Shown here piece after piece: positions 2-63,974 of a stretch of 64,000 bases of DNA. A program made the translations under genes and the position numbers. This stretch comes from Clostridia bacterium (GTDB lineage Bacteria; Bacillota; Clostridia; RGIG7378), in the NCBI GenBank assembly GCA_017559445.1, contig JAFYSJ010000006.1, forward strand, positions 380 through 64,379. Direction: 5' to 3'. How positions within the stretch are numbered: position 1 is the stretch's first letter; every line of letters starts with the position of its first letter. The notes under the pieces were generated by a model. That model was not told the origin of the DNA. It saw nothing but the letters and a program-made list of their open reading frames with translations, and did no database searches.

Positions 2-1807
2 GGTGGTTTCTCCACACTCAACGAGGAAGTTGAGAAGCTCATGATTGACGAGTTCAATGCTATGGTTAAGAGCAAGGAGTATCCCAACGACTATCTTAAG
101 AGAACATTGACACTTTACAAGGCAGCAAAGAATGTTGCAAAGAAGGATAAGGATGGCATTAAGCCAGCCCTTAAGCGTTTGGAGATGATCAAGAATCTTG
201 ACTCCATGTCCGCATTTAACAGAAAGCTTAAGACTCTTGTTATGGAGGGCATGCCTTTGCCTTTCGATATTGCAGTACAGGCTGACCTTAAGGACGCAGA
301 GCATAATTGCCTTTACATCCAGGGCCCTAGCGTAGTTTTGCCAGACGCATCTTACTATAAGCCTGAGATGGCACAGCAGAAGCAGGCACTTATCGGCATG
401 TGGACAAACATGGCACAGATGATCCTTGCTAAGACAGATCTTAGCGCTGAGGAGCAGACTAAGTACTTGGAAGATACACTTGCATTTGACGAAATGTTGG
501 GCGCATTGGTTAAGACTTCTGAGGAGTGGTCAGAGTATGTTAAGGCATACAACCCCATGAAGACATCCAGAGTATCTGGCCTCGTTAAGCCAATTAGATT
601 TAGAGCATTGCTTAAGGCACTCTTTGGCACAGCACCTGAGAAGGTTGTTGTTTTGGAGCCTAGATATTTCAAGGCCTTTAAGGAAGTTTTCAACGAGGAG
701 AACTTCGAGATGTACAAGCACTGGGCATATGTTAGAGCTTTGCTTGGCGCATGCCCTTACTTGTCCGAGGAACTTAGAGATATGGGCGGAATGTTCATGA
801 GAGCAATCACTGGTGTGCCAGTATGCACTCCTGTTGAAAAGTTTGCTTATCAGTTGGCATCTAGCATGTACTCCGAGCCAGTAGGTCTTTACTACGGCGA
901 AAAGTATTTCGGCGAAGAGGCTAAGAAGGATATTACAGAGATCGTTTATCAGATCATCGACACATATAAGGAGAGAATCAAGACTAACGATATTCTCGAA
1001 GAGGCTACTAAGGAGAAGGCTATCCTTAAGCTTTCTAAGATGGGCGTTAAGATGGGTTACCCTGACAAGGTGGATGAACTCTATGACCTTCTCGTATTTG
1101 GTGAGAGAAAGTCCTTGCTCGATATCGTTGCATCTCTTAAGAAGATTAGATTCCAGTATCAGTTGGACAGCATCAACAAGCCTGTTAATAAGGAAGAGTG
1201 GGCTATGCCAGGACATATGGTAAATGCTTGCTACAATCCTTCTGTTAACGACATTACATTCCCAGCTGCTATTTTGCAGGCTCCATTCTATTCTCTCAAG
1301 CAGACTAGAAGCGAGAACTTGGGTGGTATCGGCGCAGTTATCGGTCACGAGATTTCCCACGCATTTGACTCCAACGGTGCAAAGTGCGATGAGAATGGTA
1401 ACATCAATAACTGGTGGACAAAGGCAGACAACAAGAGATTCGACAAGAAGGTTAACCAGATGGTTAAGCAGTTCGATGGCATCGAGCTTCCTTGGGGTAA
1501 GGTAAATGGCAAGTTCATCGTTAGTGAGAACATGGCAGACAACGGTGGTATGGCTGTAACATTGGATATCATGTCCAGAACAGAGGGCGCATCCTTTGAG
1601 GAGTACTTCATGAACTGGGCACGCGTATGGTGCATCAAGGCTAAGCCAGAGTATCTTCAGTTGTTGCTTACTGTAGACGTTCACGGACCAACATGTTTGA
1701 GAGCTAACATTCCTCCAAGAAACTTCCCTGAGTGGTACGACACATTCAAGGTTAAGAAGAGTGACAAGATGTACATTGCTCCCAGCAAGAGAGTTGTTAT
1801 TTGGTAA
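2..1807 (+). CDS. pepO: M13-family zinc metallopeptidase (PepO-like endopeptidase), N-terminus truncated by window edge
   Basis: HEISHAFD (HExxH), ENMADNGG (ExxxD) and NACYNP motifs; reading frame stays open upstream of first ATG to position 2. Confidence 0.88.
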   Translation, partial: GGFSTLNEEVEKLMIDEFNAMVKSKEYPNDYLKRTLTLYKAAKNVAKKDKDGIKPALKRLEMIKNLDSMSAFNRKLKTLVMEGMPLPFDIAVQADLKDAEHNCLYIQGPSVVLPDASYYKPEMAQQKQALIGMWTNMAQMILAKTDLSAEEQTKYLEDTLAFDEMLGALVKTSEEWSEYVKAYNPMKTSRVSGLVKPIRFRALLKALFGTAPEKVVVLEPRYFKAFKEVFNEENFEMYKHWAYVRALLGACPYLSEELRDMGGMFMRAITGVPVCTPVEKFAYQLASSMYSEPVGLYYGEKYFGEEAKKDITEIVYQIIDTYKERIKTNDILEEATKEKAILKLSKMGVKMGYPDKVDELYDLLVFGERKSLLDIVASLKKIRFQYQLDSINKPVNKEEWAMPGHMVNACYNPSVNDITFPAAILQAPFYSLKQTRSENLGGIGAVIGHEISHAFDSNGAKCDENGNINNWWTKADNKRFDKKVNQMVKQFDGIELPWGKVNGKFIVSENMADNGGMAVTLDIMSRTEGASFEEYFMNWARVWCIKAKPEYLQLLLTVDVHGPTCLRANIPPRNFPEWYDTFKVKKSDKMYIAPSKRVVIW

Positions 1808-57120: not shown

Positions 57121-57941
57121 TGACCAGGCGCTCCACTAGACAGGGCCTGATCAATGCTCCCTACATGTTGTGGGCATGCATTTTCATCATCGTCCCCCTT
57201 TTCATCGTAATGTATTACGCATTTACAGACAGCAATGGAGCCTTTTCCTTTGCTAACATTTTGGCGTTGGCAGATTATGCTGACGTCTTTAAGGTGTCCA
57301 TTATTTTCTCTGTAATTGCAACAATTATCACATTGCTTGTGGGATATCCCTTTGCATACTGCCTCACTAAGCTTAAGGCAAGTGCTCAGCGTATGCAGAT
57401 GATGCTGGTTATGCTTCCCATGTGGATGAACTTGCTTATCCGCACATATTCTTGGATGAATATTTTGGAGAAAAATGGTCTGATTAACACCATTTTGAGC
57501 ACAATTGGTTTGCCCACACTTAACATGATCGGTACTCCAGCAGCAGTTATTTTGGGTATGGTTTACAACTACTTGCCCTACATGATTTTGCCAATTTACA
57601 CAACAATGGCTAAGATCGACAACTCTCTCTATGAGGCATCTGAGGATTTGGGTTGCAACCCATGGCAGAAGATGAGACGTCTTATTATCCCCATGAGTAT
57701 TCCAGGCGTTATTTCCGGTATTACCATGGTATTCGTTCCATCTATCAGTACATTCTACATTTCTCAGAAGCTTGGTGGCGGTAAGATTTTGCTTATTGGC
57801 GACATAATTGAGAGACAGATTCAGATGTCTTACAACTATAATTTGGGAGCGGCCCTTTCCTTTGTTCTGATGGTTATGATTTTGATTAGTATGGCCATTA
57901 TGAACCGCTTCTCAAATGGAGAGGGGGAGATGGTAGTATGA
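57120..57941 (+). CDS. potB: spermidine/putrescine ABC transporter permease
   Basis: ABC permease EAA-like motif; operon order. Confidence 0.85.
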   Translation: MTRRSTRQGLINAPYMLWACIFIIVPLFIVMYYAFTDSNGAFSFANILALADYADVFKVSIIFSVIATIITLLVGYPFAYCLTKLKASAQRMQMMLVMLPMWMNLLIRTYSWMNILEKNGLINTILSTIGLPTLNMIGTPAAVILGMVYNYLPYMILPIYTTMAKIDNSLYEASEDLGCNPWQKMRRLIIPMSIPGVISGITMVFVPSISTFYISQKLGGGKILLIGDIIERQIQMSYNYNLGAALSFVLMVMILISMAIMNRFSNGEGEMVV

Positions 57942-58747
57942 AGGCCCTCAGAAACATTTTTATGGGACTTGTGTACTTGTTCATGTACGCCCCTATTTTG
58001 ATTTTGGTGTTCTTCTCCTTTAACAAAGGTAAGAGTACATCTGTGTTCTCAGGTTTTTCACTTAAGTGGTACGGTGAGCTTTTCTCAAACGGCCAGGCCA
58101 TGAATGCCTTGGGTAACACTTTGATTTTGGCTGTTATTTCAGCCATTATCGCCACTGTGATTGGTACAGTTGCTGCAGTTGGCATTTACAACATGCGTAG
58201 CAAGTTCCTTTCCTCCACAGTTATGTCTGTTACAAATATCCCTATGATGAACCCGGATATCGTAACAGGTGTTAGCCTTATGCTTTTGTTCGTTTTCGTA
58301 GGTAGACTTGTTGGAGCAGCCACATCCTTGAACTTCTTCACATTGCTCATTGCCCACGTAACATTCAGTATCCCATACGTTATCTTGAATGTTTTGCCTA
58401 AGCTTAGGTCTACGGATAAGCACCTTGCAGAGGCAGCGCAGGATTTGGGATGTACACCAATGCAGTCCTTCTTTAAGGTAGTTTTGCCAAGCATTATGCC
58501 AGGCGTTTTCGCAGCTATGCTCATGGCTTTCACATTGTCACTTGATGACTTTGTTATTTCTTACTACACCAATGGATCAGATTTCCAGACACTTCCTCTG
58601 ATGATCTACTCCATGACCAAAAAGACTGTGCGCCCAGATATGTACGCATTGTCCACACTTATTTTTGTTACGATTCTTATTCTGCTGATTGTTTCTAACA
58701 TCGTTCAGGAAAAGTCAGAAAAGAAGAACCAGAAAGGAATGAACTAA
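57938..58747 (+). CDS. potC: spermidine/putrescine ABC transporter permease
   Basis: ABC permease motif; operon order. Confidence 0.85.
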   Translation: MKALRNIFMGLVYLFMYAPILILVFFSFNKGKSTSVFSGFSLKWYGELFSNGQAMNALGNTLILAVISAIIATVIGTVAAVGIYNMRSKFLSSTVMSVTNIPMMNPDIVTGVSLMLLFVFVGRLVGAATSLNFFTLLIAHVTFSIPYVILNVLPKLRSTDKHLAEAAQDLGCTPMQSFFKVVLPSIMPGVFAAMLMAFTLSLDDFVISYYTNGSDFQTLPLMIYSMTKKTVRPDMYALSTLIFVTILILLIVSNIVQEKSEKKNQKGMN

Positions 58748-59853
58748 TGAAAAAAGTAATTTCAATTGTTTTGTCCGTTGCAATAATCATCACAGCATGT
58801 GTTTCCATGACAGGCTGTGGCACAAATGACACTGTAGAGAATCTTGAAGGTACATACACACAGGAGTACGCAGGTACAACACTTAACGTATTCAACTGGG
58901 GACAGTATATTTCTGACGGCGCTGAGGGTTCCCTGGATGTAAATGCAGCTTTCGAAAAGCTCACAGGCATCAAGGTTAATTACAGCACATACGAGAGCAA
59001 CGAGGCCATGTACGGCAAGATGAAGAGCGGTGCTGTTGCATATGACATCATCATCCCTTCTGATTACATGATTCAGAGAATGGCTAACGAGGGAATGCTT
59101 AGGGAGATTGATACATCTAAGCTCTCCAACTACCACTATATTGCAGATAAGTACAAGGGACTTTACTTTGACCCAGATAACAAGTACTCCGTTGCATATA
59201 GCGTTGGTATGGTTGGCCTTATTTACAACACAACTTTGGTAGATGAGAAGCCCACAAGCTGGAAGATTATGTGGGATGAGAAGTACACAGGTAACGTACT
59301 TACATTCAACAACCCAAGAGATGCATTTGCTATTTCTCAGTTTGCTTTGGGCATTGACCTTAACACAACAAACACAGCCGATTGGGACAGAGCAGCAGAT
59401 TACCTTAAGCAGCAGAACAAGGTTTTGCAGGGCAGAGTAATGGACGAAGTTTTCAACAAGATGGAGTCCGCAAATGCAGCAATTGCTCCTTACTATGCAG
59501 GCGACTACCTCACAATGGCTGAGGAGAACGAGGATCTTGCATTTGTATATCCAGAAGAGGGAACAAACATCTTCGTAGATTCAATTTGTATTCCATCTAA
59601 CTGCCAGAACTACGAGGCAGCTCTCATGTACATCAACTTCCTTTTGGAGGTAGAGGTTGCATTGGCTAACGCAGAGTACATCTGCTACGCAACACCTAAC
59701 ACTGGCGTTTTGGCTTCCAAGGACTACAGTCTCAAGGACAGCGAGGTTCTTTACCCAGCAGTTGAGCCCAAGACTCAGTATTTCCATGACCTTCCTGCAG
59801 ATGTTCGTTCTTACTTCGAGAATCTGTGGAATCAGGTTATCCTTGCCGACTAA
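58747..59853 (+). CDS. potD: spermidine/putrescine-binding lipoprotein
   Basis: Lipobox SMTGC; PotD/PotF family size and order. Confidence 0.85.
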   Translation: MKKVISIVLSVAIIITACVSMTGCGTNDTVENLEGTYTQEYAGTTLNVFNWGQYISDGAEGSLDVNAAFEKLTGIKVNYSTYESNEAMYGKMKSGAVAYDIIIPSDYMIQRMANEGMLREIDTSKLSNYHYIADKYKGLYFDPDNKYSVAYSVGMVGLIYNTTLVDEKPTSWKIMWDEKYTGNVLTFNNPRDAFAISQFALGIDLNTTNTADWDRAADYLKQQNKVLQGRVMDEVFNKMESANAAIAPYYAGDYLTMAEENEDLAFVYPEEGTNIFVDSICIPSNCQNYEAALMYINFLLEVEVALANAEYICYATPNTGVLASKDYSLKDSEVLYPAVEPKTQYFHDLPADVRSYFENLWNQVILAD

Positions 59854-59855
59854 GT

Positions 59856-60755
59856 ATGGCAGAGTTTAATTACAAAGGCATAAATGTAAAGGAATACCCC
59901 GGTGGCATATTGCTGTCCGGGGTTTCAGACTTTATTCCCACACACGTGTTCCAGTGCGGACAGTGTTTTAGATGGCAACAGGTGGAGGAAGAGAGCTTCC
60001 ATGGTATTGCAGGTGGCAAACAGGCTCGCATTTCCATGCTTTCTAATGGAGATTTGGAGCTGTCAGGTGTGACCCCGGAGGATTTAGATAGTTTCTGGCA
60101 TAACTACTTAGACCTTGGCACCGATTATGGCAAGATCAAGGAACTTGTCACAGACGATGACATAATGAGAGAGGCCATTGAGGTGGGAAAGGGCATCCGT
60201 CTCCTTAAGCAGGACCTGTGGGAGATGATGGTTTCCTTTATTATTTCTGCAAATAACAATATTCCTAGGATCTCTGGCTCTGTGGAAAAGATATGTAACC
60301 AGTGGGGAGACCCCATTTCTGGTACTGACAGAAAATCTTTCCCAACAGCAAAGGCCCTATCTCGGGCTACGGTAGACGAAATCCGTTCCATGGGCGTCGG
60401 ATTTAGGGATAAGTACATTAAGGCGGCCAGCCTAGAAATGCAGGCAGAGGGCAGTTTAGAGACTTTGAGAAAGGAACTTATCCAGGGAGATTGTCAGCAG
60501 GCACTAGACAGAATGCTCAAGTTTATAGGAGTGGGTCCCAAGGTTGCCCATTGCATCCTGCTTTTCACAGGTATTAGGTACGACATGTTCCCCAAGGATG
60601 TTTGGGTACTGAGAGTCATGAAGGAGCTATACCCAGAGGAGTCCAACACACCTGCAGACATAGATAGAGCAGTTGCCCGAAGGTTTGGCGACTTGGCAGG
60701 ATATGCACAACAATATTTGTTTTACTATATTAGAAAAACTACAATCGGCAAATGA
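59856..60755 (+). CDS. ogg: 8-oxoguanine DNA glycosylase / N-glycosylase-DNA lyase (HhH-GPD, Ogg-like)
   Basis: HhH motif FIGVGPKVAHCILLF plus catalytic Lys/Asp region. Confidence 0.7.
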   Translation: MAEFNYKGINVKEYPGGILLSGVSDFIPTHVFQCGQCFRWQQVEEESFHGIAGGKQARISMLSNGDLELSGVTPEDLDSFWHNYLDLGTDYGKIKELVTDDDIMREAIEVGKGIRLLKQDLWEMMVSFIISANNNIPRISGSVEKICNQWGDPISGTDRKSFPTAKALSRATVDEIRSMGVGFRDKYIKAASLEMQAEGSLETLRKELIQGDCQQALDRMLKFIGVGPKVAHCILLFTGIRYDMFPKDVWVLRVMKELYPEESNTPADIDRAVARRFGDLAGYAQQYLFYYIRKTTIGK

Positions 60756-60778
60756 TTGTAGTTTTTGTCTTCTGGGCC

Positions 60779-61015
60779 TTAGGCTTCTATGTATTTGCCT
60801 TTGTCGATCCTGTACATTTGCTGCACAGGACAGTGATTGTCCCTGGATAGTTTGATCACAATGTCCCTGTTGCTGGGACTGAACTCCAAAGCAGTGTTGC
60901 AATTGCCCTTGGCGATGTGGCCTGGGATCGAAACCACGGTGGCAGTTATGCCTCTTCGCGCCAAAACTTCATACATGTAGTAGGTGTGGTTAGCTGATGT
61001 ATATAGCGCAACCAT
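60779..61015 (-). CDS. DUF3343-family small protein
   Basis: VVSIPGHIAKGNCNTAL resembles the DUF3343 iP.P..is..CG.A signature. Confidence 0.5.
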   Translation of the reverse strand: MVALYTSANHTYYMYEVLARRGITATVVSIPGHIAKGNCNTALEFSPSNRDIVIKLSRDNHCPVQQMYRIDKGKYIEA

Positions 61016-61112
61016 ATGGCCTCCTTATAGATAGATTTTCCTGTTGTATGATATGGGGGAAAAGGTCGTTTTGTGACGGAAATGTTAATTTGCAAATGAA
61101 CACTTTTTGGTG

Positions 61113-61376
61113 TTGAAGGTCAAAAATTAGGGGAGTATAATGAAGGTGCCTGGGATGTTCGGTTAACCTAATATTTTGAACCTACACCGAGTAAAAGGGG
61201 ACTTAGGTTTGTGAGGGATGTCGGGCTTCATCATTCGGCCTTATGGTCGGCAGTAGAGGACAGTAACGATGCAACAGAGACCCCACCTAGCATATGCTGG
61301 GTGTCAAAATACGGGACTCGGCATATCCGGGTTTTAAGGATTATGAGGCGGATGGCGGTGGCTGTCCGCTTTTTTG
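61113..61376 (+). ncRNA. candidate small RNA / structured leader (about 230 nt) delimited by promoter and terminator
   Basis: TTGAAG-17-TATAAT (61113-61141); terminator gcggatggcggtggctgtccgc plus T7 (61347-61376); 5' tattttga pairs with 3' tcaaaata; no T-box consensus seen. Confidence 0.3.
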
Positions 61377-61529
61377 TATATAAGGGTGAAAAGGGCTCCT
61401 AGGTTGCAATTTATTAAAAAATGGTAACAATTCGCCACTTTTTGCACCATTGCTTTCATCTTTTTTGCTTACACATGCAGTAAAATGTGTTACAATAAGC
61501 GGTAATCGTTTTAACATATGAGGTGACAT

Positions 61530-63974
61530 ATGAGTTTTAATGAATATAACCCTTCTAGTATTGAAAAGAAGTGGCAAGGCATTTGGGAGGCAGACAAGGC
61601 ATTTGAGGCTTCTGCTGATCATTCTAAGCTTAAGTTTTTTGGTTTGATTGAATTCCCCTACCCATCCGGCAACGGATTGCACGTAGGACATCCTAGATCC
61701 AACACAGCTCTCGACATTATTTGCCGTAAGCGTCGTATGGAAGGCTACAACGTTCTCTTCCCAATGGGATGGGACGCTTTTGGTTTGCCCACAGAGAATT
61801 TTGCTATTAAGAATCAGATACATCCTGCTATCGTAACTAAGCAGAACGTGGATCATTTCCGCGATCAGCTTAAGATGCTCGGCTTCTCCTTTGACTGGAG
61901 CCGTGAGGTTAACACAACAGATCCTAACTACTACAGATGGACACAGTGGATTTTCCTTCAGTTGTTCAAGGCTGGTCTCGCATACAAGAGCTCCATGCCA
62001 ATTAACTGGTGCACAAGCTGTAAGGTTGGTTTGGCTAACGAAGAGGTAGTTAACGGTAAGTGTGAGCGTTGCGGTGGCGAGGTTGTTCGTCAGGTTAAGT
62101 CTCAGTGGATGCTCAAGATCACAGACTACGCAGATAAGCTTATCGAGGGTCTTGATTCCGTTAACTTTATCGAAAAGGTTAAGATTCAGCAGCGCAACTG
62201 GATTGGTAAGTCCACAGGTGCAGAGGTAGATTTCACAATCTGCGCTCCAGCAAATGGCGAGAATCCTGCAGTTGAGTCCAAGGTTACAATTTACACAACA
62301 CGTCCTGACACATTGTTTGGCGCAACATACATGGTACTTTCTCCCGAGCACAAGCTTGTTGAGCAGTTGGCACTATACATTACAAATAACGACCAGGTAC
62401 TTGCATACAAGGCAGAGGCAGCACGTAAGTCTGACTTTGAGCGTACAGAGATGGCTAAGGACAAGACTGGCGTTGAGCTCAAGGGCATTTACGCAGTTAA
62501 CCCTGTAGACGGCAGACAGATTCCAGTATGGATTTCTGACTATGTATTGGCTAGCTACGGTACAGGCGCTATTATGGCTGTTCCTGCACACGATACACGT
62601 GACTACGAGTTCGCTAAGACATTTGGCATCGACATTATCGAGGTTGTTGCTGGTGGCGATATTTCTAAGGAAGCTTTCACAGATATCCAGGAAGGAACTA
62701 TGATTAACTCTGGTTTCCTTAACGGAAAGACTGTTGCAGAGGCTAAGGAAAGCATTATCGCATGGCTTGAAGAAAAGGGTATCGGTCACGCTAAGGTTAA
62801 CTTTAAGCTTCGTGACTGGGTATTCTCCCGTCAGCGTTACTGGGGTGAGCCAATCCCGCTTGTATACTGCGAGCACTGTGGTTGGGTTCCAGTTCCAGAG
62901 GATCAGCTTCCATTGGAGCTCCCTGCTATTGAGCAGTTCGTACAGACAGACGACGGTGAGTCCCCACTTACTCGTTGCACAGATTGGGTAAACACAACAT
63001 GTCCTCATTGCGGCCAGCCTGCAAAGAGAGAGACAGATACAATGCCACAGTGGGCAGGTTCCTCTTGGTACTATATTAGATACGCAGATCCTCACAACAA
63101 TACTGCTTTGGCAGATTGGGATGAGATGAACTACTGGTTGCCTGTAGACTGGTACAACGGCGGTATGGAGCATACAACACTCCACTTGCTTTACTCCCGT
63201 TTCTGGCATAAGTTCTTGTACGATCAGGGTGTTGTACCAACAGCTGAGCCTTATGCAAAGAGAACAGCTCATGGTATGATCCTTGGCGAAAACGGCGAGA
63301 AGATGTCTAAGTCCCGTGGTAACGTAGTTAACCCAGACGATACAGTAGCAGAGATTGGTGCAGACGCATTTAGAACATACGAAATGTTCATGGGCGCATT
63401 TGACCAGCCAATTCCATGGTCCACACAGGGTGCAAGAGGATGCCGCAAGTTCCTTGACCGTGTATGGAAGCTTCAGGAGAAGATGACAGCTGAGGAAGAG
63501 GTTTCTGCAGCACTTAAGTCTAAGGTTCATGGCTTGATCAAGAAGGTTAGCGATGATTACGAAAAGATGAAGTTCAACACAGCTATTGCAGCTATGATGG
63601 CATTTATCAACGAGGCATATACTCTTGGTTCTGTTTCCAGAGGCGATATGAGAGCATTGCTCCAGCTTTTGAACCCAGTTGCACCTCACATGACAGAGGA
63701 AATCTGGGAGGCAAACAACCTTGGTGCACAGCCAATCTACAAGACAGCATGGCCAACATACGACGAGGCTGCTATTGCTGAGGCAGAGGTTGAGATTGCT
63801 GTTCAGATCCTTGGTAAGATCAAGGCTAGAATCATGGTTCCATCCGGATTGGATGCAGCAGGCACAGAGGAGTTTGCTAAGAACCACGATGCGGTTAAAG
63901 AATTGTTAGATGGTAAGACTATTGTTAAGGTAATTGCCGTTCCAGGCAGACTGATTAACTTTATCGTTAGATAA
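61530..63974 (+). CDS. leuS: leucine--tRNA ligase
   Basis: HVGHPRS (HIGH), KMSKS, CP1 editing domain; separate promoter TTACAC-16-TGtTACAAT at 61469-61496. Confidence 0.95.
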   Translation: MSFNEYNPSSIEKKWQGIWEADKAFEASADHSKLKFFGLIEFPYPSGNGLHVGHPRSNTALDIICRKRRMEGYNVLFPMGWDAFGLPTENFAIKNQIHPAIVTKQNVDHFRDQLKMLGFSFDWSREVNTTDPNYYRWTQWIFLQLFKAGLAYKSSMPINWCTSCKVGLANEEVVNGKCERCGGEVVRQVKSQWMLKITDYADKLIEGLDSVNFIEKVKIQQRNWIGKSTGAEVDFTICAPANGENPAVESKVTIYTTRPDTLFGATYMVLSPEHKLVEQLALYITNNDQVLAYKAEAARKSDFERTEMAKDKTGVELKGIYAVNPVDGRQIPVWISDYVLASYGTGAIMAVPAHDTRDYEFAKTFGIDIIEVVAGGDISKEAFTDIQEGTMINSGFLNGKTVAEAKESIIAWLEEKGIGHAKVNFKLRDWVFSRQRYWGEPIPLVYCEHCGWVPVPEDQLPLELPAIEQFVQTDDGESPLTRCTDWVNTTCPHCGQPAKRETDTMPQWAGSSWYYIRYADPHNNTALADWDEMNYWLPVDWYNGGMEHTTLHLLYSRFWHKFLYDQGVVPTAEPYAKRTAHGMILGENGEKMSKSRGNVVNPDDTVAEIGADAFRTYEMFMGAFDQPIPWSTQGARGCRKFLDRVWKLQEKMTAEEEVSAALKSKVHGLIKKVSDDYEKMKFNTAIAAMMAFINEAYTLGSVSRGDMRALLQLLNPVAPHMTEEIWEANNLGAQPIYKTAWPTYDEAAIAEAEVEIAVQILGKIKARIMVPSGLDAAGTEEFAKNHDAVKELLDGKTIVKVIAVPGRLINFIVR

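Follow-up and report, generated by a model that had tools for sequence, protein, structure and literature searches.

As a regulator, 6S RNA acts as an open-promoter mimic and sequesters RNA polymerase. Bacillus has two paralogous 6S RNAs, and in E. coli the 6S RNA gene forms part of a dicistron, ssrS-ygfA, which provides a precedent for the coupling of a 6S RNA to the gene downstream of it. Both B. subtilis 6S-1 (bsrA) and E. coli SsrS have a body of about 185-190 nt that comprises a closing stem, an internal helix, a bubble, and an apical arm. In E. coli 6S RNA and B. subtilis 6S-1, the synthesis of a product RNA (pRNA) unzips the neighboring helix, leading to refolding and to the release of RNA polymerase (PMC8876501, PMC9670815). 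The ends of 6S RNAs are trimmed post-transcriptionally, as has been documented for those of B. subtilis (PMC10578484). 6S genes of Firmicutes are typically monocistronic, with a TATAAT promoter in front and a Rho-independent terminator behind, and the same features are typical of lactic acid bacteria, in which 6S synteny is observed at the family level (PMC8414754).

The RNA considered here is unlike known 6S RNAs in that its host belongs to an uncultured Clostridia lineage. A scan of the whole 64-kb stretch of DNA under analysis (the window) with Rfam 15 at curated thresholds returned two matches, one tRNA and one 6S RNA, and no T-box or other riboswitch at its Rfam gathering score anywhere in the window. 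At 52.3 bits (E 1.5e-7), the match to RF00013 (6S/SsrS) exceeds the gathering score of 46.4 by a modest margin of approximately 6 bits, and it spans model positions 1-187 of 187. When the scanned stretch is restricted to the 801 nt between 60900 and 61700, the E value becomes 1.8e-9, and a permissive scan of this region (E<=10) yielded RF00013 as the sole family match apart from noise at E >2; the matches to JPX_1, CRISPR-DR24, and the L20 leader in this region (E 2.5-4.7) were dismissed as chance. The alignment contains the family motifs GUUCG, UGA.CC, GGG, CCCACCU, GG.UCAA, and CGGC. Among these, GUUCG is situated in the closing stem, UGAACC and GG(U)UCAA form a helix, the GGG/CCC motif constitutes the base of the apical arm, CCCACCU belongs to the 3′ bubble strand, and CGGC lies near the 3′ end. 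The tRNA, a tRNA-Arg with anticodon ACG (34158-34234, minus strand), is the only further RNA gene detected in the window.

An initial annotation, made without database searches, had offered two readings of this region, either a highly diverged T-box or a stand-alone sRNA about as large as 6S RNA, and had proposed an Rfam scan (RF00230, RF00013, and other families) to choose between them. The second reading is the one that stands, with a 6S match above threshold at 61144-61337, and the first falls, with no RF00230 match at E<=10 in 60900-61700. In silico, the RNA is a discrete noncoding unit that has its own promoter and 3′ end and a body of roughly 185-190 nt (Table 1). We are therefore highly confident that the interval 61113-61375 constitutes a monocistronic 6S RNA (ssrS) gene and that leuS is a separate unit without a T-box. 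The sRNA beside leuS is a conventional 6S RNA and represents already-known biology; the correct label for this intergenic RNA is ssrS (6S RNA), neither a novel sRNA nor a degenerate riboswitch, and the significance of the assignment is small outside of correct annotation.

Table 1. Features of the ssrS-leuS locus (window positions unless a locus is named), with the nucleotide identity of the corresponding segments in two related loci.
Feature	Position	Strand	Basis or detail	Identity to window, L081	Identity to window, L001
DUF3343 / Se_S_carrier gene, 78 aa, divergently oriented	60779-61015	-	PF11823, E 1.1e-10	75% (coding sequence)	65% (coding sequence)
Upstream intergenic region				68%	68%
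6S sigma-A type promoter	61113-61141	+	-35 TTGAAG 61113-61118, 17-bp spacer, -10 TATAAT 61136-61141		
6S RNA (ssrS) gene, Rfam match	61144-61337	+	RF00013, homologous loci, identity		
6S RNA, conserved body	~61148-61332	+		98.4%	96.8%
Closing stem, 5′ strand	61148-61168	+	pairs with 61313-61332; MFE fold, Rfam-constrained fold, Rfam consensus structure		
Internal helix bordering central bubble, 5′ strand UAUUUUGAACC	61172-61182	+	Rfam alignment, constrained fold		
Central bubble, 5′ strand UACACCGAGUAAAA, 14 nt	61183-61196	+	unpaired in Rfam consensus; invariant in 3 variants		
Apical arm	61197-61284	+	GGGG 61197-61200 pairs with CCCC 61281-61284; apical loop near 61241-61244		
Central bubble, 3′ strand, 15 nt	61285-61299	+	Rfam alignment; CCCACCU at 61282-61288		
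Internal helix, 3′ strand GGU-g-UCAAAAUA	61300-61311	+	partner of UAUUUUGAACC; bulged G61303		
Linker	61333-61344			58%	75%
Rho-independent terminator of 6S gene	61345-61375	+	12-bp GC-rich stem 61345-61372, 4-nt loop, T-run to 61375	87%	90%
Spacer	61376-61457			57%	26%
leuS promoter and leader	61458-61529			92%	88%
leuS promoter-like site CTTACA-17-TACAAT, extended -10 TG	61468-61496	+	scan; conserved		
leuS (leucyl-tRNA synthetase, 814 aa)	61530-63974	+	ORF, Pfam domains	91% (coding sequence)	90% (coding sequence)
Divergent T-box directly upstream of leuS, L002	2755-2959 of L002				
Divergent T-box directly upstream of leuS, L005	2737-2944 of L005				
Divergent T-box directly upstream of leuS, L006	2737-2945 of L006				
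Divergent T-box directly upstream of leuS, L043	2751-2948 of L043				

The promoter of the 6S gene, TTGAAG-17-TATAAT, scores 10/12 in a consensus scan and is the best promoter-like site in the region from 60700 to 61700. Two related loci, designated L081 and L001, retain a TTGnnn hexamer (TTGTCA and TTGCGA, respectively), the 17-bp spacing, and the TATAAT box, and the sequence of the spacer has diverged. If the start lies 7 nt past the -10 box, as is usual, transcription would begin near G61148, and the predicted primary transcript, running from about 61148 to about 61375, would be approximately 230 nt long. The terminator hairpin has a computed free energy of -18.5 kcal/mol; its stem is kept in both relatives and its loop varies. 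When the window is compared with strain variants, identity stops exactly after the T-run, at 61375. Much of this architecture had been read correctly in the initial annotation, which described the near-consensus sigma-A promoter, a strong intrinsic terminator at about 61347-61376, an sRNA of about 230 nt (the right size for the predicted primary transcript), the pairing of tattttga with tcaaaata, and, for leuS, both the lack of a recognizable T-box and an extended -10 promoter at about 61469-61496 followed by a short leader. All of these elements are recovered here, with coordinates that differ by at most 1-2 nt, and over 61458-61529, which contains the leuS promoter-like site, the relatives share 88-92% identity with the window.

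In its overall arrangement, the gene resembles those of Lactobacillales, which are monocistronic, carry a TATAAT -10 box, have a Rho-independent terminator a short distance beyond the rod's 3′ end, and conserve their synteny only at the family or genus level (PMC8414754). It differs from them in its neighbors, in the 12-nt non-conserved linker that precedes the terminator, and in the strain-variable islet that lies right after it. By analogy with the end trimming of other 6S RNAs, it is probable that the linker and terminator hairpin either are removed by trimming or have no functional effect. Much less probably, the mature RNA retains the terminator hairpin, which would make it an unusually long 6S RNA of about 230 nt. 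The RNA is also overlapped by a 63-aa open reading frame (61211-61402), but a frameshift disrupts this frame in L081 and a stop codon truncates it in L001, and it was accordingly not accepted as a gene.

The rod layout of 6S RNA, with its closing stem, large central bubble, and apical stem, is present both in the Rfam alignment and in a constrained fold, and corresponds to the anatomy of 6S-1 and SsrS. When the Rfam pairs are imposed, the segment 61148-61335 folds into a rod with an open bubble at -48.6 kcal/mol. The unconstrained minimum free energy (MFE) fold, at -58.5 kcal/mol, keeps the rod and places the 3′ bubble strand in an 8-bp hairpin at 61284-61303, and the hairpin still forms in silico if bases 61175-61188, the presumed template strand, are withheld from pairing. 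That the MFE fold of the free RNA closes this strand counts against the 6S reading. Both the open-bubble and the 3′-hairpin conformations are accessible in silico. In the MFE fold, tattttga (61172-61179) pairs with tcaaaata (61304-61311), and the Rfam 6S model contains the same pairing as a consensus helix, except that U61176 and A61307 are left as a 1x1 internal loop. The UGAACC/GG(U)UCAA helix and the placement of CCCACCU on the 3′ bubble strand are shared with the 6S family. Unlike in the 6S consensus, G61303 is bulged from the internal helix, and the apical arm exceeds that of the RF00013 consensus by 15 nt (the apical insert that the alignment does not display measures 42 versus 27 nt). 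Neither the RNA body (-0.83) nor the RNA with its terminator (-1.54) has a significant MFE z-score; the z-scores lend no independent support, a result that is expected because the RNA has large loops.

The family mechanism suggests how such an RNA might function. Transcription would be started near 61148 by the sigma-A promoter and ended near 61375 by the intrinsic terminator. By analogy with E. coli 6S RNA and B. subtilis 6S-1, the open-bubble form would mimic an open promoter and occupy the active site of the sigma-A RNA polymerase holoenzyme, and this occupancy would be expected to damp housekeeping transcription in stationary phase. Upon a nutrient upshift, RNA polymerase would use the 5′ bubble strand as the template for a short product RNA, the synthesis of which would unzip the internal helix and allow the 3′ strand to refold as the 61284-61303 hairpin; formation of this hairpin would then release the polymerase. 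The capacity of the 3′ bubble strand to refold into a hairpin is a likeness to 6S-1 and SsrS, for which pRNA-induced release has been described, and under the same family mechanism the 5′ bubble strand is the expected template region for pRNA (PMC8876501, PMC9670815). The predicted pRNA would lie around 5′-GGUGUAGGUUCAAA, complementary to approximately 61175-61188, with a start site that is uncertain. The two alternative folds found here are the kind of states that the 6S mechanism uses, and from family membership we infer that this RNA would work in the same way.

To compare the locus among relatives, a scan anchored on leuS was carried out with one genome per GTDB species; 80 loci were fetched, and 39 related loci were scanned with Rfam. 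One of these, L001, derives from a Clostridia MAG with 96% LeuS identity and carries a 6S RNA at the corresponding position (52.8 bits). The DUF3343 protein, used as a query, returned three clusters, one of which led to a third variant, L081, with a 6S RNA at 56.9 bits; the same search also brought up many contigs from the species of the window, in which the 6S RNA is identical. The segment identities (Table 1) establish the RNA body as the most conserved stretch of the locus, above even the essential leuS gene. The island of conservation coincides with this body, which is 97-98% identical, whereas the unconstrained sequences (intergenic, linker, and spacer) reach 26-75% and the leuS coding sequence about 90%.

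Both strands of the bubble and the helices that flank it are invariant among the three variants. Seven of the nine substituted positions within the body fall in the apical arm (61230-61260), together with a 1-nt insertion, and the other two are the unpaired positions 61169 and 61325. Four changes affect paired sites in these three variants, which are 96-98% identical: wobble pairing accommodates three of them, and the fourth disrupts its pair. Because no double compensatory changes occur among three such near-identical sequences, the comparison speaks neither for nor against covariation. JGI metagenomes, scanned with two DNA patterns, returned zero and five matches, respectively, and no further 6S homologues; the five matches are attributed to chance because none of them contained a 6S RNA.

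Gene context sets this locus apart from other 6S genes, which adjoin rarA in Bacilli and ygfA in E. coli, whereas here the neighbors are the DUF3343 gene and leuS. The upstream context is common to all of the strain contigs and contains, at 57938-60755 on the plus strand, genes for a spermidine/putrescine-type ABC transporter (a BPD_transp_1 permease and an SBP_bac solute-binding protein) followed by an 8-oxoguanine DNA glycosylase gene. The glycosylase (OGG_N/HhH-GPD) is 299 aa long in public contigs, versus the 309-aa open reading frame with a GTG start that is listed for the window.

Downstream, the promoter-like site of leuS ends about 33 nt before the ATG at 61530, and the leader of approximately 30 nt includes a GAGGTGA ribosome-binding site. 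Five contigs of the same species (L086, L087, L091, L100, and L102) carry a 1584-bp islet between the 6S terminator and leuS. This islet, which occupies positions 8056-9639 of L100, replaces 53 bp of spacer (61376-61428 of the window) and has a GC content of 33%, versus 43% for the window. It consists of three genes on the opposite strand, encoding a DUF2975-like membrane protein, a 66-aa XRE/HTH regulator, and a second DUF2975 protein. In L100, homology resumes at 61429 and the leuS promoter is retained downstream of the islet. The 8-bp direct repeat AGATAAAA is found near both islet junctions, and the spacer of L081 resembles an empty site. The position directly 3′ of the 6S terminator is thus a strain-variable insertion point. 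The presence of opposite-strand genes between the two indicates that the 6S RNA is not a leader of leuS and belongs to a separate transcription unit; since the islet separates them in several strains, the terminator-bearing 6S gene and the promoter-bearing leuS behave as two separate modules.

The two genes nevertheless lie on the same strand, about 150 nt apart, and their adjacency is kept in three variants of the genus, an arrangement that would suit a functional link between them. Partial readthrough of the 6S terminator could add growth-phase-dependent transcription to leuS and so replace the T-box that some relatives keep. If this were true, leaky termination at 61375 would tie leuS to the growth-phase-regulated 6S promoter and create an ssrS-leuS operon comparable to ssrS-ygfA of E. 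coli. We regard such coupling as unlikely, because the terminator is strong and ends in a T-run, leuS has a conserved promoter of its own, and conspecific strains tolerate a 1.6-kb islet of opposite-strand genes between the 6S gene and leuS. Moreover, the 6S gene adjoins leuS in none of the other 38 related leuS loci (the scans covered all 38 at the gathering threshold and 20 also at E<=0.1), and the adjacency is therefore best viewed as a genus-level accident of synteny, which fits the family-level synteny of 6S genes in lactic acid bacteria (PMC8414754).

With ssrS and leuS taken as separate units, a further question is whether the family assignment itself might be a false positive, the RNA belonging instead to some other, undescribed class of structured sRNA with a function other than RNA polymerase sequestration. 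The narrow score margin, the nonsignificant z-scores, and the lack of covariation among the homologues would all be compatible with such a class. Weighed against them are the match to the full length of the model, conserved family motifs included, the E values obtained both for the 64-kb window and for the 801-nt region, and a size, promoter type, terminator, and rod-with-bubble architecture that all fit 6S RNA; in addition, two relatives pass the RF00013 threshold independently (56.9 and 52.8 bits). We judge a misassignment of this kind to be very unlikely. The last reading, in which the RNA is a highly divergent T-box leader that senses uncharged tRNA-Leu and controls readthrough of the 61345-61375 terminator into leuS, was rejected as having practically no chance of being correct: it accounts for an RNA upstream of leuS on the same strand with a terminator at its end, and weak leuS T-boxes do exist in the clade, but the sequence matches 6S RNA end to end, the 801-nt region yields no RF00230 match at E<=10 and lacks the T-box core motif (GGGUGGNACCGCG-like, with up to 3 mismatches, in 60900-61700), a non-conserved linker separates the structured body from the terminator and no alternative antiterminator was found, a conserved leuS promoter lies 90-120 nt downstream of the terminator, and in several strains the islet splits the terminator from leuS.

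What the 6S gene shares with a leuS T-box leader (RF00230) is thus position only, upstream of a synthetase gene on the same strand and with an intrinsic terminator; neither the model nor the core motif is matched, and a promoter intervenes between the terminator and leuS. Across the window, the core motif at up to 3 mismatches occurs 11 times against 16.7 expected, which is below chance. Upstream of the leuS ATG, only about 100 nt are conserved, and these are mostly promoter. The absence of a T-box at leuS is accordingly real but ordinary. Of the related leuS loci with adequate upstream sequence, 7/39 carry a canonical T-box at the Rfam gathering threshold. When 19 gathering-negative loci were rescanned permissively (E<=0.1), four proved to contain divergent full-length T-boxes and 15 contained none, so that a permissive scan of the kind that was negative for the window's leuS does pick up divergent leuS T-boxes in relatives. 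Because 15 of 19 rescanned relatives have no T-box, leuS genes without one are common in this part of Clostridia, and the surprise that the initial annotation implied at a T-box-free leuS is not warranted: the missing element is no anomaly in this clade. This picture agrees with the strongly lineage-dependent use of T-box control among tRNA ligases (PMC2494555).

The four divergent T-boxes score 60-67 bits (L002, L005, and L006) and 47 bits (L043) and reside in Christensenellaceae- and Eubacteriales-like MAGs. Such scores are far below the Rfam T-box gathering score of 93 bits, and these elements would therefore be missed by standard annotation. Counts made at the gathering threshold alone consequently understate the true number, and scans of this kind undercount genuine divergent leuS T-boxes in Christensenellaceae-like relatives. 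Taken together, the real leuS T-boxes of the relatives span 47-152 bits, and they lie 40-110 nt before the leuS match.

Two further structured elements were encountered among the related loci. In L021, a hairpin at 1374-1457 matches microRNA-precursor families on both strands at sub-threshold scores (mir-3151 at 51 bits and mir-Ro6-3 at 38 bits), and it is almost certainly a long palindromic hairpin rather than a real member of any such family. In L003, an uncultured Clostridia MAG with 75% LeuS identity, a drum RNA (RF02958, 81.5 bits) is located just upstream of leuS on the opposite strand, at 174-284 (minus strand).
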